Part shown: positions 1-16,208 of the stretch, one piece after another
How positions within the stretch are numbered: the stretch's first letter is position 1
Layout of the letters: each line of letters starts with the position of its first letter
Source: Candidatus Saccharimonadota bacterium
Lineage (GTDB): Archaea; Nanobdellota; Nanobdellia; Pacearchaeales; GW2011-AR1
Reading direction: 5' to 3'
Assembly (NCBI GenBank): GCA_041659445.1
Contig: JBAZYG010000002.1
Location: 1 to 32,000 of the forward strand
Length of the DNA: 32,000 nucleotides
Notes under the pieces: model-generated
Told to the model about the DNA's origin: nothing
Seen by the model: the letters and a program-made list of their open reading frames with translations, nothing else
Database searches by the model: none
Program-made: the position numbers and the translations under genes

Positions 1-3000
1 GTTGTTCCAACAGAAAATTTCTGAGAATCATTTATTCCAGAATTGCTATTAATATCTGAAATGTAAGCAGTTATATTCCAAAGCCCTGCTCCATCCCACC
101 ACCACATTATAACATTACAAGTATAATTTGCATAATTTCCAGAACTCCAATATTCAGTACAAGTTAAATTTTCTCTTGTTGTTTCACCTGTTTTTGTAAA
201 ATTAATTTTAGCACTAGAATCATTTATGTTTGCATTACCATTTGCATCATAAACACTAAAATTAATTATAACTGACGTCGAGAATGGGCCTTCATTAGGA
301 CCAGAAGAAACATCTGTCATGCTCTCATTAAAAACATTAATTATTTGTGGTAGAGAATTAGAAGAAGCAGTTACATTAATCCAAAAAATTGAAGAATTAG
401 AAGTATAATTTTGACTAGGTTGATAAACACAAGTTATGTTATACAAACCTTCGCTATCAAAAAGTGTATAATTTCCAATAGGTGATGTGCCATTATTAAT
501 TAAAGTTCCATTATTGTATAACGAAATATAAGAATTAGAATCTCCGTTGAGAATTGAACAATTCAAATTAATTAAAGTTCCAGATTCAATCGTTGCATTA
601 AATTCAGAACTATTTAATGTTAAATTTACACTTGATTGAATTGGATTAATTATTAAAGTGTTGGAATTCAAACTTGGAAAAGATGAATAATTTGTTCCAC
701 CAGTTGAATTCAATACTAAAGAATAAGTTCCAGCAGAAGAAATAGAATCAGAATTTCCTTTATCAATTCCATCTCTATAAATTTTATAAATTACATCTCC
801 ATCACCATTGTTTGATTCAGAAATTCCAAGTACATTTGGAGTCCCATCATAATCTCTTGTCCAGGTTTTATCATTTGTTAAAGTTGCAGTTAAAGAAGTT
901 TTATTGACATAATAATCTCTTGATTGAGAACTGTTAAGATTATTATTTGTTCCATTTCCATAAGCCCACCAAATATAGCTATAACTTCCTGCAGATAATC
1001 CATTTGTTAGATAAACTCCAAAATTATTTACACTTAAATTTGTTGCAGAATAATTTACTCCATTAAATTCTAACCAAACAGTTCCGTTAGTATTTACAAT
1101 TGTAGAATTAATTGAATATATCTGTTCATAAGAATAATTTGATGCATTCGTCGGTGTTTCAGTATAATTTGAAAATTGTGGATAAACTGTATCACTTGAA
1201 CCAACCAAAAGTATAACAGAATCAACAAAAACACTATCTCCATCAAGTAAATCAAAGTTTGCTCCTTCAACAACCACGACAACTTGATTATTATTTGGAT
1301 TAACAATTTGCTGGGCTACTAAATCAGTATAATTCACAGTTGAAACAGTATTTGTTCCTGAACCAATATTTCCTACATAAATCCAAGCTGAAGAAGTAAA
1401 ATTATAAATATAAAATCCTGCTAATTCACTTGCATTTTCATAACCCTTAAAAGAAACATTTATCCAAGTTATTGCTGTTCTTGTTTCATTCAATGTAATA
1501 TTAAATCTCCAAAAAGGTTCATCATTCCTATCATCGGTTTGAACAATAGCATATTGGGCATCATTTGAACTCATATTTACATATTGTGCAGATGTTGCTT
1601 GAGTCCCAGCAGTAAATCTAGAAGAACCTGCTGGAGAAGCCCAATATGCAACATTTGTAGTATACCAAGAAAAATTATAGTTTGAAACAGGGTCGACAAT
1701 ATAATCAAACTGAACACTTCCGTCAACAATTTTTAAATCAAAAGTATTCTGTTCTTTTTCGAGATTAGTCAATAAAACTTTATTATAATCATTTGAAATT
1801 AAATCAGAAAACTTTACAATTAAATCATCTTTATCTTTTTCATATACTTCAATTTCAGGATTTCCAGAAACTATCCTTGGAAAAATTGTAATATCATTAA
1901 TAGAAGTTAAATTTTTTTCAAAAGTTACTCGAACATATTCATTATCTGATATTTCTTCGCTCCATATATTATCTAATTTATAAACTTCATTATAAATATC
2001 TGAAAAAAAATTCCTTTCAGTATCTAAGTGTTCTGCTTTTGTTATCACAATAATTTCAAAAGTTTGATTGCTCAAATGAGGAATATTCCATTCAACATAA
2101 TCATAAATTCCATTATTGTCTTTATCCTGAACAGATTTTACCTCAAGATATGTTAAATTTTCAACCCAAAATATTTTAATTTTTGAAGGATTTTTTAAAT
2201 TTAAATTTTCATCTAAGTTTGTAAAAGCCAAAACATTTTCATAATGAATTTCATCAGGCCCGACAATTTTAATTTTTTTTCCATTTGATAAATTTTCTTC
2301 AATAGAGTAAGGAGCAGGAGTTTCATACTTAATTTCATATTTTAAAGAATCTTTTTCTTTAATTTCAACTTTTAAATAACTCTCTCCTTCAATTTGTTCT
2401 TCAACAAAATTTCCAGTAATAGATTTTACTACTTTATTTTCAATTGGCTCAATAATATTTGCATTAACTTCTTTCTGTGTTTCTGATTGTTTTACAACGA
2501 CGTTTTCTGCGTTTTTTGGAATAGATATATTTATTTCTCCAAAATTTTCTAATTCAACATTTTTTTTCCAAACAACAGGTTGTCCTAAAACAGCCTCTCC
2601 TTGAACTAAGGTAATATTTTTTATATTTGCCTCTTTAGGCTCTGTAAAATTTTCTTTTTCATGAAAAAAAACCCCATAATTTATCGATTTCAAATTTAAT
2701 GTTCCATTAGAAATTTCAATTTTAATTTCATAAGAAGAAAAATTCAAATTAAATTCTTCCAAGTCACAAGTTTCTTCACAAACATTGTTAAAATTGAAGC
2801 TTTCAAAATTATTTTCATTTTCAAAAGATAGAGACTTCTCTTGAGAAGGGCTTAAGTTCACTTGAGAAGTCCCATTTAATTCTTCTGAATTTGATAAATT
2901 GCTTGAATTAATTTCTAAATTAAAACTTTCATTTAGTTCTTCAATTTCAATTGAGTAATTTTCTTCTATAGATTTTCCAGTCATACCAAAATCAGATATA

Positions 3001-3572
3001 GAATTTCCAGTAATTTCTGAACTTTTAGATGAAGAACTTTCATAAATTAAATATTCGTTCAAGTAAATCTTAAAACTTCCATTTCCATAAAAAGAACCAT
3101 CAACATTTACATATTTTAAAATTTCTGAGTTTTGAATTTCCAAAGTATAATTTGTGTTTTGTGTAAAATTCAAATTAACATTATCAGAAAAATCTTGAAC
3201 AGAATAATCTTTAGTGATGAACCCTACAAAATTCGGACTTAGAAAAAATACAGAAACAAAAATTAAAACAAAAAATAAAGAAGCAGATATGGTTAATATT
3301 TCTTTTTTTAAAAGTTTTTTATTGTGATGCTTTAAATGTCTTTCACATTCATGAATGTACGAATTATAATAATGAATCCAAGAATTTGGAGTTTTTTTAT
3401 GAATTTCTTTTCTTATTGCTGCATGATATTCTTCATAAGAAAGATGCCCTGATGAATATTTTTCTTCAACACGAGAAAGATAATTTTGAATTTTTTCTTT
3501 ATGTGATTTTGCAAGAGCTATTCTTTTTTTTAATTCTGCTATAGCTATCTCTGGTGAATAAGCCCTTCTCAT
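1..3572 (-). CDS. Giant membrane-anchored surface protein, 3' end cut by window edge (>=1190 aa)
   Basis: Absent from the ORF track because there is no stop inside the window. ATG at 3572-3570 is preceded by an in-frame TAA. The frame stayed open in every stretch I hand-translated (3300-3359, 2040-2099, 1500-1559, 960-1019, 3-59). N-terminus is MRRAYSPEIAIAELKK..., with one TM helix (ILTISASLFFVLIFVSVFFL) about 90 aa in. The rest is Asn/Ser/Thr-rich sequence dense in N-x-S/T sequons. Confidence 0.8.
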   Translation of the reverse strand, partial: MRRAYSPEIAIAELKKRIALAKSHKEKIQNYLSRVEEKYSSGHLSYEEYHAAIRKEIHKKTPNSWIHYYNSYIHECERHLKHHNKKLLKKEILTISASLFFVLIFVSVFFLSPNFVGFITKDYSVQDFSDNVNLNFTQNTNYTLEIQNSEILKYVNVDGSFYGNGSFKIYLNEYLIYESSSSKSSEITGNSISDFGMTGKSIEENYSIEIEELNESFNLEINSSNLSNSEELNGTSQVNLSPSQEKSLSFENENNFESFNFNNVCEETCDLEEFNLNFSSYEIKIEISNGTLNLKSINYGVFFHEKENFTEPKEANIKNITLVQGEAVLGQPVVWKKNVELENFGEINISIPKNAENVVVKQSETQKEVNANIIEPIENKVVKSITGNFVEEQIEGESYLKVEIKEKDSLKYEIKYETPAPYSIEENLSNGKKIKIVGPDEIHYENVLAFTNLDENLNLKNPSKIKIFWVENLTYLEVKSVQDKDNNGIYDYVEWNIPHLSNQTFEIIVITKAEHLDTERNFFSDIYNEVYKLDNIWSEEISDNEYVRVTFEKNLTSINDITIFPRIVSGNPEIEVYEKDKDDLIVKFSDLISNDYNKVLLTNLEKEQNTFDLKIVDGSVQFDYIVDPVSNYNFSWYTTNVAYWASPAGSSRFTAGTQATSAQYVNMSSNDAQYAIVQTDDRNDEPFWRFNITLNETRTAITWINVSFKGYENASELAGFYIYNFTSSAWIYVGNIGSGTNTVSTVNYTDLVAQQIVNPNNNQVVVVVEGANFDLLDGDSVFVDSVILLVGSSDTVYPQFSNYTETPTNASNYSYEQIYSINSTIVNTNGTVWLEFNGVNYSATNLSVNNFGVYLTNGLSAGSYSYIWWAYGNGTNNNLNSSQSRDYYVNKTSLTATLTNDKTWTRDYDGTPNVLGISESNNGDGDVIYKIYRDGIDKGNSDSISSAGTYSLVLNSTGGTNYSSFPSLNSNTLIINPIQSSVNLTLNSSEFNATIESGTLINLNCSILNGDSNSYISLYNNGTLINNGTSPIGNYTLFDSEGLYNITCVYQPSQNYTSNSSIFWINVTASSNSLPQIINVFNESMTDVSSGPNEGPFSTSVIINFSVYDANGNANINDSSAKINFTKTGETTRENLTCTEYWSSGNYANYTCNVIMWWWDGAGLWNITAYISDINSNSGINDSQKFSVGT

Positions 3573-3644
3573 ACTTATTATGTATGTAATAATACTTATA
3601 AAACTTATTATTTATGTAATAATACTTATTATGTATGTAATGTA
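3573..3644. repeat. Three copies of a 21-bp unit plus a 9-bp partial unit, abutting the start codon of the giant gene
   Basis: Plus strand: acttattatgtatgtaataat (3573-3593), acttataaa (3594-3602), acttattatttatgtaataat (3603-3623), acttattatgtatgtaatgta (3624-3644). On the gene strand the partial unit reads TTTATAAGT, a TATA-like box about 30 nt upstream of the ATG. Confidence 0.85.
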
Positions 3645-3677
3645 AAAATCACAAAAAAATTCTAAAATTATATCTTT

Positions 3678-4232
3678 CTAAACAATTTGAATTTTTCCAT
3701 CAGATAAAAGAATTTTTACTATTTCTTTTGGAATGTTTGCAATTTGCCCTTTTTCAAAAGGCCCCATTTTTTCACCTTCAAGATCTGCAAATTCTTCTGT
3801 ACTTTCTAAAAATAAAACCATTTCATTTTGTTGAGATTCTTCAGTTTGTTTATCCCCATTCATAAATCTATTTAATTTTTTATCAGACTTCTCCAAAGTT
3901 TTAACAACTTCTTCAAAAAGATCTTTCTCCATTTGCAACATATTTTCAAAATCTTGCTTTGAAATGCCTGTTTCAGAAGCAATTAAAACCAAATTCAAGA
4001 TTTTTTTTCTTCTCCTTCTTAAAAGTTCTTGAAATAAAGTCAAGGCATTTTCCAATTGCTTCTTTGTTTTTAAAAGACTATCAGAAAAAACATCATTATC
4101 TTTCGAAGCTACTTCTTTTTTTTCTTTTAAATATTTTTCAACATCTTTAACAAAACTTTTTGATATTGGTTGAAGACTTTCAGAATATCTCTCTTTTTTT
4201 GCCGCATCATAAATCTCCTTGTAAGTTATCAT
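3678..4232 (-). CDS. GINS subunit (Gins51/Sld5-Psf1-like order: helical A domain then small beta B domain)
   Basis: 184 aa. Helical N-terminal part with the LQPISKSFVKDVEKYLKE...RRRRKKIL pattern typical of archaeal GINS. Short C-terminal beta-rich part is GPFEKGQIANIPKEIVKILLSDGKIQIV. Family call is from memory only. Confidence 0.55.
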   Translation of the reverse strand: MITYKEIYDAAKKERYSESLQPISKSFVKDVEKYLKEKKEVASKDNDVFSDSLLKTKKQLENALTLFQELLRRRRKKILNLVLIASETGISKQDFENMLQMEKDLFEEVVKTLEKSDKKLNRFMNGDKQTEESQQNEMVLFLESTEEFADLEGEKMGPFEKGQIANIPKEIVKILLSDGKIQIV

Positions 4233-4299
4233 CTAAAAACAAAAAATCTCTTGTTTTTAAGAATTGTGATACTTAAATAGAATTAAAAATTATTTCAAA

Positions 4300-5064
4300 T
4301 TACAATTTTTTAATTTCTTCAACATCCCTCACAAAAACCACCCAGCCATAATCATTGGAACCATGCAAAGTGTCAATGTTAGACTTCACATTCAGACTAT
4401 TACCCGCAAAAACTCTCGACAAATCTTTTTCTTTTGTATGAAGAGTTTTTTCACTATTTCCTAATTCATTTTTGAATTGAATTTTGCTATTTCCATAACC
4501 AAATCTTTCATCATTTTCAAGAATTGAATCTTTTCTAAGTTTTAATAAAAGTCCATAAAAATTATTTGAATTATTATCATTTATTAAATCAAAATTAGAA
4601 ATAATTAAAGGATTTTTTGGAGAAAAACTTTTTTCTCTTGATTTAACTTGTTTAACTAAATTTTCTAAAATATGCTTATTATTTTCCCAACCAATTTCTT
4701 CACTTCTTAAACATAAATTTATTGTATCAGAATAATGTTCACTAAAAAAATTTTTATCTAAAGCATAAATTTTTCCTAAATCATTTAAATTCATAATTCT
4801 TCCATTTATTCCTTGTTCTTTTAAGAAATTATTCAAATAATTATTCCAGAAAAATTGAGAACCTTTTAAAGTTTCAAAATTAATTCCATAAGTTAAAGAC
4901 TTAATTGCTCTTTCATTTTCTTTAAAATCTTTAATTAATTTTTCTCTTGCTGAATTATAAACTTCAATTGGAGCAAAACCTAAAGCAGGTTCTGCATCTA
5001 AGGTTATTATTGTTGCTCCTTGAGGGATTATTTCTTTTCGTTTAAAATCAAGATGCTTTACCAT
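4300..5064 (-). CDS. Uncharacterised protein, paralog A of 26590-27366
   Basis: 254 aa. The central ~170 aa are mostly identical to the 258-aa ORF at 26590-27366 (GSQFFWNNYLNNF.KEQGINGR, HYSDTINLCLRSEE, NNSNNFYGLLLKLR.DSILENDERF). No family recognised. Confidence 0.8.
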   Translation of the reverse strand: MVKHLDFKRKEIIPQGATIITLDAEPALGFAPIEVYNSAREKLIKDFKENERAIKSLTYGINFETLKGSQFFWNNYLNNFLKEQGINGRIMNLNDLGKIYALDKNFFSEHYSDTINLCLRSEEIGWENNKHILENLVKQVKSREKSFSPKNPLIISNFDLINDNNSNNFYGLLLKLRKDSILENDERFGYGNSKIQFKNELGNSEKTLHTKEKDLSRVFAGNSLNVKSNIDTLHGSNDYGWVVFVRDVEEIKKL

Positions 5065-5135
5065 GAAAATTAAATAAAATTAATGTTTAAAAAGCTTATT
5101 AAAACTCTTTGTTAAGAACAATTAGTAACAATTTT

Positions 5136-6380
5136 TTACTTAAACTCAACTTTTTTGAACAAATCTTTTCCTAAAAACTTTCCCAAACTTCCATTTTCAG
5201 CTTCTTTTTCATTAAACTTTTTTTCTTTGAACTCAGAATTATTAAAAAACAAAACAGGAACAGGATCTGCAGAATGATTTTTTAATTTGCACGGAGTAGA
5301 ATGGTCTCCTGTAACAACAATATTTATTTTCTTAGAAATTGCAAAACCTTTTAAAAATTTAAAAAAAGTTTTATCAATGTATTCTAGCATTTCTTTTTTC
5401 TCAATTGGCTTGTTATCATGTCCCGGAACATCAACTTCTTTCAAATGAATGTATGCATAATCTGCTTTTTTATAATTTCTTTTTAAAAATTTAACAGAAA
5501 ATTTGCAAGCTTTTCTTAATCCTTCATACAAATTCTTGTAACAATCCAAATTTTTTAATTTAGGATAATTAAAAGAAAAATTCTTCATTCCAGAAACTTT
5601 TGAAAATCCAATTTCAAGAGGCATATAATTTGCAGAAACCCATTTTTTATATTGCTTTAATTTTGGCTTTTCAATTCCAGCTCCCCTCATTAAAAGATAA
5701 TTTGCAGGAAGCAAACCACTTTCTTTTCTCTTAACATTTACAGGATGATCTTTCAAAACAAGATAAGCTTGTTTCAAAAATTCATTTAAAATATTTGCAG
5801 TATATTCTGAATTTTCATCGTCGTCTAATGGCTTAAAAAAAGAAATTTTTTCAGGCTCTCCAGAAATTCCTTTTGTGTAAGTCAAATCATTAACTGAAAT
5901 GTTGTCTGAAAAACCACCTCTTAAAACAAGTGCAGCCCGATGCTGTATTGTTGAAACAAATTCAAATTTGCACGAAAGTTTAATTTTATTCAGTGCATCA
6001 GAAAGTTCTTTTGCCTCAGAAGTTGTCAATGTTCTTCCAGCCCTTCTATCCAAAATATTCCCTCTTTCAAATGAATCAATAGTTGCGAAATTAACTCTCA
6101 AAGCCAAGTCACCACGTTTTAATTCAAGTCCAGAACCAATAGCTTCTAATTGTCCTCTTGTACTATCAATTAATTTATTTCCAAAAATAGAAACAATTGC
6201 TTCATCAGATTCAGGAATAAAATTTTGCTTAACAGGATACATTAAACCTAATTCACCATAACTTGCTAAAAAATTTAAGTTAGGAATATTTGCAGATTCC
6301 AAGCAGGTTTTTCCATCCAAGGCTTTGTTATCCAAATCCCCTAACCCATCGATGATAATTAACACACCCCTCATAAACAT
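5136..6380 (-). CDS. apgM: 2,3-bisphosphoglycerate-independent phosphoglycerate mutase, archaeal type
   Basis: 414 aa. N-terminal GVLIIIDGLGD metal-binding motif, later VDVPGHD and VTGDHSTP motifs of the alkaline-phosphatase-superfamily archaeal iPGM. Confidence 0.85.
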   Translation of the reverse strand: MFMRGVLIIIDGLGDLDNKALDGKTCLESANIPNLNFLASYGELGLMYPVKQNFIPESDEAIVSIFGNKLIDSTRGQLEAIGSGLELKRGDLALRVNFATIDSFERGNILDRRAGRTLTTSEAKELSDALNKIKLSCKFEFVSTIQHRAALVLRGGFSDNISVNDLTYTKGISGEPEKISFFKPLDDDENSEYTANILNEFLKQAYLVLKDHPVNVKRKESGLLPANYLLMRGAGIEKPKLKQYKKWVSANYMPLEIGFSKVSGMKNFSFNYPKLKNLDCYKNLYEGLRKACKFSVKFLKRNYKKADYAYIHLKEVDVPGHDNKPIEKKEMLEYIDKTFFKFLKGFAISKKINIVVTGDHSTPCKLKNHSADPVPVLFFNNSEFKEKKFNEKEAENGSLGKFLGKDLFKKVEFK

Positions 6381-6487
6381 TTAAAATCTCTTTCTTTTAT
6401 AAAAATTTAGTGTCACTTAAAATTGTGTAAAACCATGTTAAATGCTAAAACCACTAAACTCTTAAACCTTAATTTTCTATTATTTTT

Positions 6488-7573
6488 ATGTTTGGAAAAC
6501 TAAAGGATAAACTAAAATCTTGGGTAAATAAGGTTTCTAAAGAAAAACCAGAAGAGTTAGAACAAGAAGAAACAAAACAAGAAAAACCTGAAAAAAAAAG
6601 TTTTTTCAAGAGTTTAAAAAAAGTAAAGGCAAAACCAGAACAAGAAGAAATTAATGAAGAAAAAATAGAAGAAATTGTTGAAGAAACAAAAAGAGAATCT
6701 TTTTTGAAAAGATTAACTTCTTCAAAAAGAATAATTACAGAAGAAAAATTTTCAGAATATGCAGAAGAACTTGAAATGATTCTTCTTGAAAATAATGTAG
6801 CATTAGAAGTCGCTGAAAAAATTATTTCAGATTTAAAAAAGTATATTGTCGGAGAAGAAATTTCTAAAAAAGAAATACAAGAAACAATTACAGAATCTTT
6901 AAAAGAAACAATTGAACACGTTCTTATTGAACCTTTTGATTTGGTTGAAAAAATAAAAGAATATAAAAAAGATTACAAAAGACCTTATGTTATTTTGTTT
7001 TGTGGAATAAACGGAACAGGAAAAACAACAACAATTGCAAAATTAATTAATTTGTTTAAAAAAAATAATTTATCTTCAATAATTGCTGCAGGAGATACAT
7101 TCAGAGCAGCTTCTATAGAACAATTAAAAAAGCACGGAGAAAAACTTAATGTAAAAGTAATTTCACATGAATATGGAAGTGATCCTGCTTCTGTTGGTTT
7201 TGAAACAATTAAAATTGCTGAAAAAAATTTAATTGATGTTGTGCTAATTGACACAGCTGGAAGAATGCACACAGCCAAAAATCTTTTAAGAGAAATGGAA
7301 AAAGTAAAAAAAGTTTGCAAGCCAGCATTGACAATTTTTGTCGGAGAATCAATAACAGGAAATGATTCAACAGAACAAGTAAAAGCATTTAACGAAACAA
7401 TTGGAATTGATGCAATTATCTTGAGTAAAGCAGACATTGATGAAAAAGGCGGAACTGCATTAAGCGTTGGTTATACAACAAAAAAACCAATTTTATTCTT
7501 AGGAACAGGACAAGAATATGATAAATTAGAAAAATTCAATAAAAAAAAGTTTGTAGAAAAATTAGGATTATAA
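6488..7573 (+). CDS. ftsY: Signal recognition particle receptor FtsY
   Basis: 361 aa. Lys/Glu-rich N-terminal region followed by an SRP-GTPase NG domain: GINGTGKTTTIAKL, DTAGR, LSKADID, GTGQEYDKL. Confidence 0.9.
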   Translation: MFGKLKDKLKSWVNKVSKEKPEELEQEETKQEKPEKKSFFKSLKKVKAKPEQEEINEEKIEEIVEETKRESFLKRLTSSKRIITEEKFSEYAEELEMILLENNVALEVAEKIISDLKKYIVGEEISKKEIQETITESLKETIEHVLIEPFDLVEKIKEYKKDYKRPYVILFCGINGTGKTTTIAKLINLFKKNNLSSIIAAGDTFRAASIEQLKKHGEKLNVKVISHEYGSDPASVGFETIKIAEKNLIDVVLIDTAGRMHTAKNLLREMEKVKKVCKPALTIFVGESITGNDSTEQVKAFNETIGIDAIILSKADIDEKGGTALSVGYTTKKPILFLGTGQEYDKLEKFNKKKFVEKLGL

Positions 7574-11639: not shown

Positions 11640-12200
11640 TTATAATTTCTTTTCAAAATTCTCTTTAACCCAAGAATCAAAAGCAATTTCAACACAATCA
11701 ATTCTTTCCTGAAGAGACATGTTTTCTCTTCCCTTTGGAAAAGGCACTTTTCTATATCCTGGAAGATGCTCATATAATTTAAAAACAGGAATACCAAAAA
11801 CGTTTTTCATAAAATTATAAGTCAAATTTGCTCTTAATTTTAGAATATTTTCATCTTTAGGATGCTCTTCAAAAATTCCATTTGCTTTCCAAATTTTTTC
11901 TAAATCTTCTCTAAATGCTCCTGATATAGAAACTGCTATGTGAAAATAATCTGAAATATCTCCATGACAAATAGGAATAATTATTCCCGAAACATCTGTT
12001 TTCAAATTTATCCTTCCTCTTTGATAAAAAGGTTTAAGATGTTCTGCAATTTCCTGATAATTGGATTCTATTAAATTTGGGTTATTTAACTTATTTACAA
12101 GATTCTTTTTAAGAAAACTTTGATCCAATTTATATGTATCAGGATATTTATAATGACCTCCTTCTAAAGGTCCTGTAAAATAGAAATTTAAATTTTCCAT
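11640..12200 (-). CDS. Hypothetical protein
   Basis: 186 aa clean ORF with a TATA-like CTTTAAAAAG about 25 nt upstream. No family recognised. Confidence 0.6.
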   Translation of the reverse strand: MENLNFYFTGPLEGGHYKYPDTYKLDQSFLKKNLVNKLNNPNLIESNYQEIAEHLKPFYQRGRINLKTDVSGIIIPICHGDISDYFHIAVSISGAFREDLEKIWKANGIFEEHPKDENILKLRANLTYNFMKNVFGIPVFKLYEHLPGYRKVPFPKGRENMSLQERIDCVEIAFDSWVKENFEKKL

Positions 12201-12508: not shown

Positions 12509-12660
12509 AAAAAATAAAAGTCATACACATATTTAAATATAACGCTGAAATAAATAACTTCTTAATAATAAACTACAATTTTAACTTTAAAATGCTCCTA
12601 TCTCAGTACTATCTTAAAATGCTCGTGAATTCATATAAAGAATTTCAATCTTAAAAGACT

Positions 12661-13732: not shown

Positions 13733-15187
13733 TTATTGAGATACGCTCCATTTTTTTAAAAATCTATTTTTAAGAAAATCTGTAAAACCTTGAGAAGAAA
13801 TAATATTGAAATTTGAAGAATCTTGTTGTTGAGATTCAACACTTTGTTGTTCTTGCTCTTGCTGTCCTTGAGTTGTTTGAGATTCTTCAGAACTTTCTGT
13901 ACCCTCACTAGAAGTATCAGTTGAAACTTGACATTTATACCTAATTTTATAATCATTAACACATACGCCATTTTGCTGATTTACTGCTTTACAATAAAGT
14001 CCTGTTCTATAATCACAACTAACAACTTCTCCAGTTTGATGATAGTCTATTCCCGACGCTGTTTGACATTCAATATCAATAATCTTAGAACAATCATCAG
14101 GAAGAACATTCCAACCACTATGATATTCTATATCAGAACCATCACTTGAATCATCTAAATTATACCAAGGAGTCCAACCATTTTCAAGTTGAGGGATTAT
14201 TGCGTTTGGGTCATTAACAGACATGCAAATTCCGTCAGAACAACCATATTTACAAATAATTGTTTGACCAGAATTTATTTTTCCTGCAGCAGGCTTATAA
14301 GTTTGAGCGTAACAAGAATATTTCTTAAGATTTTGTGAATTTATACAATAATCTGTTTTTTGTTCATAAAAAATATCATTCTCTACAACAGCGTCCCTGA
14401 AATATCTATCATAAGTAGATGTTGAAACTTTTCCTGTTTTTGTGCACGAATAATAAATTCCTTCTTCTATGCAAGCACCATTAGAACAACCATGAGGACA
14501 TTTTGATGTTCCACTTGCTCCAAATGTTTTTTCAACTACATAAACATCTAAAGGTATTGACATTGGAGGACTAGCAAACCAACTAAAATAAGGATAAGAA
14601 TAACAAGCATATTCTTTCAGAGTATAACTATTAGAACAATAATCTGTAAAAGAGTTTAAAGTATTAATATCTTCTTTAGTGTAACCAGTAGTTGTTCCTT
14701 TTACATACTTTGCATCATTACTATTACTTGGTGCAACTTGTTGAATAACTTCCGACGCTGAATAAGGACCATTCGCAAGTACATTTACGTTAGTATCACT
14801 ATCTGAACAAGAATTAAAGATATATCTTTCTTCATAATTTAAACATCTTCCATCAAAGCATCCATATTCACAATTTTTTTTATCTGAAACAAGATTTCCA
14901 TAAACATCACAACCTTTTTCATGAACTCTAAAACTATTTTCAGAAGAAACAATATAACAAGCATCAGTAGCAGTATTTCCAGAGGCATCTGTTACAGTTC
15001 CTTTGATATAAATATTTGAACCGCCATCACTATCAGTGCAATATCCTTCTCCAATAACATTTGCAGAAGTTCCTTCAGAAAAAAAATTCTTTATTTTATA
15101 AAAAAATCCCGAAGATGAAGCTAATGCAAAAGGGATTATTAAAATTAATAAAATCAAAGCAATAACAAAACCACTCTTTTTCATCAT
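13733..15187 (-). CDS. Secreted 24-Cys protein: three 6-Cys modules, a WxxW-like domain and a Gln/Glu/Ser-rich tail
   Basis: 484 aa. Signal/anchor is KKSGFVIALILLILIIPFALASS. Three modules each end in C-x-[YH]-G-C-x-[DN]-G-x-C (CEYGCFDGRC, CPHGCSNGAC, CKYGCSDGIC). Residues 338-420 begin WTPWYNLDD and end DYKIRYKC. The low-complexity tail is TESSEESQTTQGQQEQEQQSVESQQQ. Confidence 0.8.
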   Translation of the reverse strand: MMKKSGFVIALILLILIIPFALASSSGFFYKIKNFFSEGTSANVIGEGYCTDSDGGSNIYIKGTVTDASGNTATDACYIVSSENSFRVHEKGCDVYGNLVSDKKNCEYGCFDGRCLNYEERYIFNSCSDSDTNVNVLANGPYSASEVIQQVAPSNSNDAKYVKGTTTGYTKEDINTLNSFTDYCSNSYTLKEYACYSYPYFSWFASPPMSIPLDVYVVEKTFGASGTSKCPHGCSNGACIEEGIYYSCTKTGKVSTSTYDRYFRDAVVENDIFYEQKTDYCINSQNLKKYSCYAQTYKPAAGKINSGQTIICKYGCSDGICMSVNDPNAIIPQLENGWTPWYNLDDSSDGSDIEYHSGWNVLPDDCSKIIDIECQTASGIDYHQTGEVVSCDYRTGLYCKAVNQQNGVCVNDYKIRYKCQVSTDTSSEGTESSEESQTTQGQQEQEQQSVESQQQDSSNFNIISSQGFTDFLKNRFLKKWSVSQ

Positions 15188-15233
15188 AAATAACTTAAAA
15201 AAAAGAACTATATAAAATTAATTAATTTTGAAA

Positions 15234-15306
15234 TAGCCCTGCCAGGATTCGAACCTGGGTCCCTGCCTCCAAAGGGCAGTATACTTGACCGCTGTACTAC
15301 AGGGCT
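15234..15306 (-). tRNA. tRNA-Gln (anticodon UUG)
   Basis: The minus strand reads AGCCCTG TA GTAC AGCGGTCAA GTAT A CTGCC CTTTGGA GGCAG GGAC CCAGG TTCGAAT CCTGG CAGGGCT A. It has a 7-bp acceptor stem with A1-U72, perfect 5-bp anticodon and T stems, a GTTCGAAT T-loop and no encoded CCA. Confidence 0.9.
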
Positions 15307-15381
15307 TTAAAGTTTTTCTGTAGTACACTTATCAACCGCGTCGAAAAGGAAGTTGAACATGAAGGAACCTTGGTTCCTTAT

Positions 15382-15399
15382 GCTGTACTACAGGGCTTT
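15382..15399 (-). repeat. Second copy of the tRNA-Gln 5' end (2 leader nt plus tRNA positions 1-16)
   Basis: gctgtactacagggcttt at 15382-15399 is identical to 15291-15308, offset 91 nt. An inverted 10-mer ctgtagtaca at 15318-15327 lies between the copies. Confidence 0.9.
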
Positions 15400-15420
15400 T
15401 AATTATCAAATCATATTTCT

Positions 15421-15428
15421 ATTTATAA
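15421..15428 (-). promoter_or_regulatory. TATA box (TTATAAAT) positioned for the distal tRNA-Gln 5' copy
   Basis: The minus strand reads CTCTTATAAATAGAAATATGATTTGATAATTAAA|AGCCCTG. There are 23 nt between the box and the distal A1. This is typical archaeal TATA-to-start spacing. Confidence 0.5.
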
Positions 15429-15519
15429 GAGTTTTGATGATAAAAGAATTTTAAAAATTATTAACTAAATAGTAGTTACATATAGAAAGATTTAAATACT
15501 TAAAAATTGTTTAAAAAAC

Positions 15520-16146
15520 ATGGGGAAAAAAGAACAAATTCAACAATATTTAACTTCTTTAGAAGCAACTCTAAATGAAATGTCTTTAACAAATGAAGGT
15601 CAAAATTTTTATAAGAATGTGAATGAATTCTTAAAAAATCCAAACAAATATTTAATTAACTCTCAAAATTCAAACAATGATAACGTAGATTTTCATGAAA
15701 AAAATCAATTAGAAAAAATAACTTTAGAAGAATCAGAACAAAAAGTCGAACAATTTATCAAAAATGCAAAATCTCAAGGAAAAGAAATTTGGTATAGTTC
15801 ATTTCCAGATCCTGAAGGTTTTTTTTGGGATGATAAAAAGCAAAAGAGTATAGAATATAATTCATTTTATGTTATAACAAAACTTCCAAGTTCAGATGAT
15901 GCAGAATTTATGATTCTTCCAGAAGATGAAACCAAAATGAAAATTAATGCTATTTCAAGTTGGAAGCAATATATTCGTCCAGTATGTAATATTATTTTGA
16001 AACAAAATGTGAACTCTTATGAAGAAAGTAAAATTATCCAACATAAACAAGGAAAATTATATCATGAAGGAATGAAATGGAAAATAAGAGACAAAGAAAA
16101 AGATGGAATCTTAATTGATTTATATGCTCCGGGAATAATTGAATAA
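15520..16146 (+). CDS. Hypothetical protein
   Basis: 208 aa clean ORF, soluble-looking. No family recognised. Confidence 0.6.
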   Translation: MGKKEQIQQYLTSLEATLNEMSLTNEGQNFYKNVNEFLKNPNKYLINSQNSNNDNVDFHEKNQLEKITLEESEQKVEQFIKNAKSQGKEIWYSSFPDPEGFFWDDKKQKSIEYNSFYVITKLPSSDDAEFMILPEDETKMKINAISSWKQYIRPVCNIILKQNVNSYEESKIIQHKQGKLYHEGMKWKIRDKEKDGILIDLYAPGIIE

Positions 16147-16208
16147 ACATTTATTTCTAAAAAAACAGTCATCACAAGCTTTAAAAAACCAGAATACAAA
16201 GTATTGAG

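Follow-up and report, generated by a model that had tools for sequence, protein, structure and literature searches.

Archaeal mobile elements classically integrate at transfer RNA genes, and tRNA genes that are interrupted by introns, split or permuted are thought to have arisen from such events. The bulge-helix-bulge (BHB) motif of archaeal tRNA introns consists of two 3-nt bulges that carry the splice sites, a 4-bp helix between them and at least one further flanking helix; the rules for BHB-dependent archaeal tRNA introns were reportedly set out by Marck and Grosjean. Leaderless transcription of tRNAs is said to have been described by Randau et al. in 2008 for the RNase P-free Nanoarchaeum. 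Among described systems, archaeal integrative elements with pNOB8-type or SSV-type integrases resemble the locus considered here in that a partial copy of a tRNA end lies upstream of a reconstituted complete tRNA (PMC3293823). In the model of Sugahara et al. (2012), integration of mobile elements, combined with recombination, scatters tRNA fragments and creates introns (PMC3293823). Integration of the casposon/Cas1 type is guided by a tRNA stem-loop, produces a duplication of about 14-15 bp and also accepts mini-substrates (PMC5137440).

The DNA analysed here, which we call the window, is a stretch of 32,000 nt with a G+C content of about 26%. It carries a set of archaeal housekeeping genes (SRP54/FtsY, RIO kinase, ParA/MinD, S15/S13e, GAN/RecJ-like DHH, aIF2-alpha, RadA and Gins51) but neither EndA nor RtcB, and the closest homologues of its GAN protein come from genomes named Pacearchaeota, Nanoarchaeota or Woesearchaeota. 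ARAGORN and Rfam agree on a single tRNA gene in the window, the 73-nt tRNA-Gln(UUG) on the minus strand that the first-pass annotation had reported (15234..15306; Rfam score 66.3 bits, E 1.6e-12). The gene is complete, running from A1 to U72 with discriminator A73 and without an encoded CCA, and this copy is taken to be the functional tRNA. The 18-mer AAAGCCCTGTAGTACAGC, composed of leader nucleotides -2 and -1 followed by tRNA positions 1-16, occurs exactly twice on the minus strand, once at the tRNA itself (the proximal copy, 15291..15308) and once 91 nt upstream (the distal copy, 15382..15399), which agrees with the recurrence noted in the same annotation. When up to three mismatches are allowed, only 0.01 matches are expected, and two matches were reached in none of 100 shuffles, which rules out a chance origin of the repeat. 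An assembly artefact is ruled out as well, since the arrangement is identical base for base in independent assemblies from other samples (L001, ENA ERZ27249449; L002, Logan SRR18595301).

Between the two copies lies an insert of 73 nt (15309..15381, minus strand; 91 nt when one repeat copy is counted), absent from most relatives and homologous to sequences in two metagenomic loci, L146 and L228. It comprises a conserved core, an antisense segment and a non-conserved tail. The core contains hairpin 1, AAGGAAC-CAAG-GTTCCTT (15362-15379), present as previously noted with a 7-bp stem of a kind found in 117 of 5000 shuffles; according to both MFE folding and RNAalifold, it is extended by 3 bp to reach tRNA position 16 of the distal copy (15358..15382, minus strand). 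Hairpin 2 (15333..15355, minus strand; CAACU ... GGUUG, 5 bp with a 13-nt loop) is predicted in all three homologues. The antisense segment TGTACTACAG (15318..15327, minus strand) matches the complement of tRNA positions 5-14 at 10 of 10 bases, its pairing partner in the window being the tRNA segment CUGUAGUACA, and a perfect complement of this length arose in 45 of 20000 shuffled spacers (p about 0.002); this complement, too, had been pointed out at first reading. Because the tRNA segment there is nearly palindromic, TGTACTACAG is also a direct match to tRNA positions 6-15 at 9 of 10 bases. The tail, AAAAACTTT, fills the space between antisense segment and proximal repeat (15309..15317, minus strand) and varies among homologues in both sequence and length (alignment A2). 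The insert matched no Rfam family, either at the gathering score or at E values up to 10. A box C/D or H/ACA guide acting through the antisense segment was rejected, since no C/D or ACA boxes are conserved by eye in the three homologues, and small ORFs on the core were dismissed on either strand because their start codons vary (ATG, GTG, ATT and GTC, again by eye).

The native tRNA-Gln promoter box CTTATAAAT (15421..15429, minus strand), recognised by its spacing and by its similarity to the promoters of L123 and L005, includes TTATAAAT (15428-15421), for which the first-pass annotation had given the correct position and spacing, with 23 nt between it and A1 of the distal copy. An upstream promoter element, ATCAAAACT, is common to the window, L123 and L005. 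In a count over about 108 low-GC tRNA-Gln loci having a strong box, the box cTTATAAAT ends 21-24 nt before the tRNA +1 in 75, with a peak at 22 nt, whereas 114 nt separate the native box from the proximal +1 in the window, and no conserved box stands ahead of the proximal copy in the window or in L228. Because the relatives' box is found in the window 23 nt ahead of the distal copy, the 91 nt appear to have been inserted after tRNA position 16. Since the relatives' promoter spacing is matched at the distal copy, this copy, judged from sequence, is probably the original start of the gene, left as a decoy beside its native promoter.

Uninterrupted versions of the gene are common. A scan of one genome per species with a degenerate tRNA-Gln pattern gave 119 loci, and a second scan, of metagenome contigs, gave 120; the latter was broader than a metagenome scan demanding both repeat copies, which returned no match. 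Thirteen genes from the genome scan are identical to that of the window at 65 or more of 73 positions, none with a direct 5' copy of at least 10 nt and only one, L095, with a degenerate copy. Identity rises to 72/73 in L101, L129/L130, L226 and L251, all of which lack the insert, and it is absent from all syntenic relatives. A comparison of the locus among relatives, which the first-pass annotation had suggested, thus finds the same tRNA without the duplication in most of them. An insertion with an 18-bp target duplication had been one of its readings, and this is the one best supported, by the uninterrupted relatives with the same promoter spacing and by homologous inserts elsewhere. The neutral scar to which its refuting condition would have led was not found, the core being conserved and structured across very divergent genomes.

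When the 300 nt upstream of 117 further tRNA-Gln loci were inspected, three proved to have a direct copy of their 5' end. Two of the three, L146 and L228, contain a homologous core of ~55 nt at the same tRNA position as in the window, each with a repeat of its own tRNA. The shared core, (R)TAAGGAACCAAGGTTCCTTnAnnGTCAACyTCCTTTT..G.GGTTG, comes directly after tRNA position 14-17 and is followed by the complement of the local tRNA 5' region, a non-conserved tail of 10-18 nt and the complete tRNA. Mean column identity over the insert alignments of the window, L146 and L228 (A2 and A3) is 83-88%, and covariance model R1 scores the three loci at 107.8, 107.4 and 85.5 bits. The gene neighbourhoods of the three inserts are unrelated, and the L228 ParA is about 42% identical to that of the window. 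The repeat measures 18 nt in the window, about 18-20 nt in L146 and 16 nt in L228, and its inner end falls in the D-loop in the window (-2..16) and likewise in the other two. In all three divergent lineages the distal copy equals the 5' end of the tRNA beside it, in L146 down to the lineage-specific A7 and U13. The L146 antisense segment, TATACTATAGG, covaries with the local tRNA segment (CCTATAGTATA/CCUAUAGUAUA); in L228 the antisense segment has one base deleted and hairpin 1 is also imperfect. The core is also found alone in L226 (35.7 bits with the covariance model), 1 nt upstream of and antisense to tRNA-Val, where there is no repeat and the distance from promoter to tRNA-Val is raised to about 50 nt, and a degenerate copy lies in the tRNA-Val 3' unit of L246. 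Such copies at separate loci, together with the empty sites of relatives, are what a transposable element would be expected to show. The inserts form a small and apparently undescribed family in Pace/Woesearchaeota.

The insert is related to the tRNA-end duplications made by integrative elements. Like those, it has a partial copy of a tRNA end upstream of a complete tRNA, a repeat that runs from an internal stem-loop to the gene end, an empty site in relatives and a variable or inserted region. It differs in size, with 73 nt between the copies instead of kilobases, in a repeat of 16-18 nt instead of about 40-50 nt, in the absence of a recombinase here, and in being a conserved structured module that contains the complement of the duplicated segment, so that its antisense part matches its target. 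The locus could also be an attL-attR scar, left when an integrase-borne element with the tRNA 5' end in its attP recombined in the D-loop, duplicated -2..16 and was mostly lost, leaving ~73 nt of its arms. Such a scar would explain why the repeat reaches outward from the D-loop stem-loop and stops shortly beyond the gene, in the manner of att identity blocks, and why sites are empty in relatives. The 5' and 3' termini of archaeal tRNA genes are typical attachment sites. The location of the tRNA within a 2.4-kb insertion, the kilobase-scale islands flanked by tRNA-end copies elsewhere in the data set (L106), an integrase fragment at the corresponding place in relatives of L228 and the 5' tRNA fragment upstream of a reconstituted tRNA in Caldiarchaeum (PMC3293823) all point the same way. 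We nevertheless regard a scar of this kind as unlikely: no integrase was found in the window or between the repeats, and the tRNA 5' part, the junction and the core gave no exact match in viral contigs. Moreover, the same small size and core recur in three unrelated genomes, which independent near-total deletions would not give, and the end copies cluster 57-123 nt from the tRNA instead of being spread at random distances like deletion remnants.

The surroundings of the gene have been rearranged. In relatives with GAN proteins 67-80% identical to that of the window, ParA is followed by a conserved noncoding element and then by the tRNA-Gln gene. The corresponding ancestral site in the window (12509..12660, minus strand), occupied by tRNA-Gln in L122, L123/124, L126 and L129/130, is now empty, with promoter and tRNA precisely missing between this element and the promoter of the gene that follows (alignment A4). 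The window's tRNA-Gln is found 2.6 kb away, within ~2.4 kb not present in relatives (13740..16175, boundaries approximate) between ParA and S15, which are ~100 nt apart in the relatives. Besides the tRNA-Gln, its insert and its promoter, this insertion contains the gene of a secreted Cys-rich protein of 484 aa and an orphan gene whose 208-aa product gave no homologues; it bears no Pfam or PHROG mobile-element signature, and the scanned ORFs of the window include no Phage_integrase or other recombinase and no viral signature. Three scans of viral_contigs for a donor, with the tRNA 5' part, the distal junction and the core, gave no exact match in a sequence space where DPANN plasmids and viruses are poorly sampled. 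The L228 tRNA-Gln also stands in a non-conserved context, and no tRNA-Gln was found at the matching place in relatives of its upstream gene. With the window's tRNA in an insertion and that of L228 in a non-conserved context, the insert-bearing genes therefore sit in rearranged regions, which fits the model of Sugahara et al. (PMC3293823).

Two further kinds of mobile DNA invite comparison. MITE-like elements are also short, conserved, hairpin-forming sequences at several loci and genomes, with direct target repeats and empty sites in relatives. Unlike them, the insert has no terminal inverted repeats, one of its segments matches the local target, no parent transposase is known, and the duplication is long (16-19 bp), varies in length and stops at the tRNA terminus in every case; in L226 the core is not flanked by a repeat at all. 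Casposons share stem-loop-guided integration next to a tRNA with a duplication of about 15 bp (PMC5137440), but their duplication overlaps the tRNA 3' end by 5 bp only, whereas that of the insert is inside the 5' end of the gene. Casposon-type integration, which needs TIRs and a casposase, was rejected, as there are no TIRs, no Cas1 among the scanned window ORFs and the duplication is at the wrong end.

Non-canonical introns and split tRNAs of archaea present another likeness, namely a hairpin-rich interruption of 60-120 nt in the loop of a DPANN tRNA gene, with part of it complementary to the adjacent exon. The first-pass annotation had considered that the mature tRNA might use the distal 5' exon, with an intron at position 16/17, so that 91 nt ending in the proximal copy would be excised. 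The promoter does stand at a leaderless distance from the distal copy, and the identity of that copy to the tRNA 5' end in three divergent lineages, A7 and U13 of L146 included, also counts in favour. Folding agrees at first sight: both the unconstrained MFE structure (-61.7 kcal/mol, z -4.97) and the RNAalifold consensus place the distal acceptor strand opposite the 3' end and set the antisense segment against the proximal copy. However, hand analysis and two scripted scans of the window, L146 and L228, with relaxed bulges and helices included, found no BHB motif of strict or relaxed geometry for any excision of 91 nt in the window, 99 nt in L146 or 88 nt in L228, so that the scripted search bears out the earlier failure to see one by eye. 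Since both splice sites of a 91-nt excision would lie inside the repeat, the central helix of the BHB must be self-complementary, and the candidates for this, GUAC (positions 10-13) and UGUA (positions 6-9), both lack flanking helices. The relaxed scan gave one candidate common to all three homologues, a cut after position 15 in which GUAC:GUAC (GUAU:GUAU in L146) could supply the 4-bp central helix; it is flanked by helices of 0-2 bp, or of 4 bp in one variant of L146, and its bulges are not consistent in size. The GUAC 4-mer is simply a strand of the D-stem.

Other observations also speak against an intron. The 5' junction would fall inside the extension of hairpin 1 and not in a bulge. Unlike in known intron-containing or split genes, the exon end is duplicated and an uninterrupted 73-nt tRNA scoring 66.3 bits remains, so that no excision is required for function; that excision would yield a canonical tRNA is trivial, as any 91-nt cut within the repeat regenerates the same sequence. 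The architecture of L095 is the same, and there the distal copy AGCTTGTAGTACA has a degenerate acceptor strand (AGCTTG) that makes an acceptor stem impossible. We know of no precedent for an intron that ends in a full copy of its own 5' exon. A BHB intron is thus unsupported, nothing indicates a spliced intron, and we consider a non-canonical D-loop intron quite improbable.

The reading towards which we lean, with restrained confidence, is that of an insertion module which duplicated the 5' end of the tRNA and now precedes it in the transcript as a structured leader, in which the decoy is sequestered and which is cut away from the complete proximal tRNA. A 73-nt module would have entered the tRNA-Gln gene after position 16, duplicating its first 16-18 nt, and because the 5' end was duplicated during insertion, a complete tRNA gene, the proximal copy, would survive downstream; the same module family would recur at this tRNA position in other Pace/Woesearchaeota genomes. 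Transcription would proceed from the native promoter and, judging by promoter spacing, start at or near the distal copy, and the 91-nt leader would fold on itself while being made. By pairing through positions 5-14 with the antisense segment and through position 16 with the hairpin-1 extension, the distal copy would close a three-way junction. In the closed leader the decoy could not compete for the 3' acceptor strand with the real 5' end. Finally, the leader would be cut at the proximal +1 by a 5'-processing endonuclease, presumably RNase P. A complete tRNA after a structured leader transcribed from an upstream promoter is also found in RNase P-processed 5' leaders and tRNA-like processing elements, and the native box, 114 nt away, is too far upstream for a leaderless start at the proximal copy; what sets the present leader apart from those is that its first part exactly duplicates the 5' end of its tRNA.

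The folding of the leader is consistent with this reading. The antisense segment is predicted to be able either to close the leader domain with the distal copy or to pair with the proximal copy. A structure combining the proximal cloverleaf with the closed leader domain reaches -57.2 kcal/mol against -61.7 for the MFE; it is energetically feasible, at a cost of 4-6 kcal/mol above the MFE, and we infer that the leader domain would fold first co-transcriptionally. Across the three homologues the leader model comprises 25 pairs, of which 4 have changed on both sides, and 96% of its cells are paired; 12 of 500 shuffles do as well, and slid controls collapse. The exchanges include C-G against U-A and A-U/G-C/G-U in the extension of hairpin 1; hairpin 2 has a single one-sided change, from U-G to C-G. 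With three sequences this covariation is suggestive, not conclusive, and it is thin because only three full family members were found. The structured leader with a decoy that the first-pass annotation had offered as a further reading is compatible with this predicted three-way junction and its compensatory changes; its companion proposal, removal by RNase P, is one that we infer.

That long leaders are processed in this clade is suggested by other genes. L095 has no TATA ahead of its proximal copy, so that, with its distal copy degenerate, its tRNA must be released from a leader of roughly 107 nt. Some other tRNAs in the clade have a box-to-+1 distance of 49-57 nt, and these together with L095 mean that long leaders must be processed. 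Several points count against our reading, among them the rival fold preferred by the unconstrained MFE and the RNAalifold consensus, and the thin covariation. Promoter spacing is rigid, which suggests that tRNA transcripts are leaderless, as in the RNase P-free Nanoarchaeum, and we found no literature on the RNase P of this lineage. A leader as such does not explain why distal and proximal copies are perfectly identical in three divergent genomes, except if each insertion happened recently. Finally, no transposase, integrase or donor element was found among the window ORFs or in viral_contigs.

The distal copy might instead be what is left of the 5' end of a second, tandem tRNA-Gln gene, such as one for the CUG isoacceptor, that decayed in an AT-rich genome. 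In Hydrothermarchaeales and other Methanobacteriota, long 5' matches do prove to be tandem genes of this sort, tRNA-Gln(CUG)-tRNA-Gln(UUG) pairs with start-to-start distances of 93-198 nt (L016, L059, L073, L083); 91 nt would accommodate a 73-nt tRNA and an 18-nt spacer, and AAGGAACCAAGGTTC weakly resembles tRNA positions 41-56. Yet the tRNA covariance model, run over 15200-15460 at E values up to 10, returned the proximal tRNA only, and no tandem paralogue is present at that place in Pace/Woesearchaeota relatives. The core, 83-88% conserved despite a ParA identity of about 42% (L228), does not behave like a pseudogene, and analogous units in Thermoplasmata are only 62 nt long. A decayed tandem tRNA-Gln(CUG) was therefore rejected on the missing covariance hit in the distal unit and on core conservation, and we regard this origin as very improbable.

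Units of the same logic, with an end copy, one or more hairpins, a complement of a tRNA segment and a short tail, are found elsewhere. In Thermoplasmata they lie at the 5' end of tRNA-Gln, two in tandem in L026 and one each in L043, L041 and L012, and Woesearchaeota have 5' units with different spacers (L095, L165); the distal copies are decayed in L095 and L043. Mirror-image units at the 3' end of tRNA-Gln occur in many Pace/Woesearchaeota and others (L029, L055, L065, L082, L097, L100, L122, L123, L126 and more), and 3' units are also present at tRNA-Asp, -Thr, -Lys and -Val. One may speculate that an undescribed class of miniature structured modules, of which the window would have one copy, colonises archaeal tRNA ends, in the D-loop at the 5' end and, in mirror image, in the T-loop at the 3' end, duplicating the terminus and carrying its complement; we regard this as doubtful. 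Duplication of the terminus would let the gene survive, the complementary segment could guide the choice of target or clamp the decoy and so neutralise it, and removal may be BHB-independent in lineages that transcribe their tRNAs leaderless.

If the units are mobile, they would represent a new kind of tRNA-targeting element and would give a tangible link from integration scars to tRNA introns or split tRNA genes. Should they be no more than scars, they are nevertheless a pitfall in practice: tRNA finders pick up the intact copy but overlook both the decoy and the long structured leader, and MFE folding of such loci wrongly suggests a giant D-loop intron. Similar units occur at tRNA gene ends in several phyla of archaea; of the tRNA-Gln loci sampled, about 2.5% carry one at the 5' end and about 10% one at the 3' end. 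A complement of the T-arm of at least 9 nt accompanies about 7% of ~220 non-redundant tRNA-Gln loci, against none in the control interval, and most of these complements begin 2-3 nt past the tRNA 3' end.

The structured module that duplicates the tRNA 5' end in the window has mirror-image counterparts at tRNA 3' ends. Downstream of tRNA-Gln such 3' units occur at L029, L055, L065, L082, L097, L100, L122, L123/L124, L126, L135, L141 and other loci from our scans (about 10% of the tRNA-Gln loci sampled), and further examples adjoin tRNA-Asp (L026), tRNA-Thr (L102), tRNA-Lys (L121) and tRNA-Val (L246). Each begins 2-3 nt past the tRNA with the reverse complement of the T arm, continues with hairpins and ends with a second copy of the tRNA's final 12-23 nt, which lies 57-123 nt downstream. 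In some loci the 3' units are in tandem: there are three copies in L082, the repeats are long in L123 and L004, and in L123/L124 the contigs stop within the repeat. Units built by the same logic, with another hairpin (GGAATT..AATTCC), lie 5' of tRNA-Gln in the Thermoplasmata loci L026, L043, L041 and L012. L026 carries two of them in tandem, at about -125 and -63 from the tRNA, and the unit of L043 is homologous to the first of these, its end copy being degenerate. A further 5' unit, in L165 (about 310-454, +), has an unrelated spacer of 109 nt that holds the palindrome GTCAAGTACTTGAC, which consists of tRNA positions 19-26 plus their complement.

The location of the tRNA-Gln in the window has itself changed. 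Compared with the relatives that keep the gene downstream of ParA (L122, L123, L126 and L129), the window has a vacant ancestral site at 12509-12660 (-), from which promoter and tRNA are precisely absent. The gene now lies 2.6 kb away, within about 2.4 kb (about 13740-16175) that the relatives lack, where its neighbours encode a 484-aa secreted protein with a Mucin2_WxxW domain and a 208-aa orphan. Among the low-GC tRNA-Gln loci (L003-L251) the distance from the conserved cTTATAAAT box to tRNA +1 hardly varies (21-24 nt, with a peak at 22), which suggests that tRNAs in Pace/Woesearchaeota are transcribed with no leader or almost none. At the ancestral site, a noncoding element at about 12560-12650 (-) is also present upstream of tRNA-Gln in the same four relatives, with conserved blocks in the order TTTATATnAATT..CGAGCATT..TAGGAGCATT..AGTTAAA..GTTTATTATT and a TATA-like box of its own. 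A search of Rfam with E values up to 1 gave no hit for this element, which may be a small RNA gene of unknown kind.

A close lookalike of hairpin 1 (AAGGAAC-CAAG-GTTCCTT in the window insert) precedes a protein gene in L152 (at about 850) and in L246 (about 11765-11782 in + coordinates, with the gene on the opposite, -, strand). This hairpin, AAGAACCTTGGTTCTT, separates a Shine-Dalgarno-like GGAGG from the start codon, and the gene product, beginning MA(Q/I)..K(R/K)..FFDVEIP, may be an S3Ae-like ribosomal protein. The two hairpins may be a protein-binding hairpin in common.

A LAGLIDADG-type ORF (L009, 3338-4234, +; L126, 2643-3119, -) adjoins tRNA-Gln and runs without a spacer into the first bases of the tRNA, whose 5' end may thus be the site of a homing endonuclease gene. 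In L106, tRNA-Gln and a 13-nt copy of its 3' end enclose an island of 3.9 kb (2546-6520); motif inspection of the island's ORF translations pointed to a Fic/DOC-like protein, a nucleotidyltransferase-HEPN-like pair and a methyltransferase-like protein, and no evident integrase-like ORF. Finally, a short ORF of about 170 aa with a Phage_integrase domain (L257, 2846-3361; L258, 3131-3640) is found directly 3' of an AsnC-family gene, the same place that is occupied by the tRNA-Gln bearing the homologous insert in L228.
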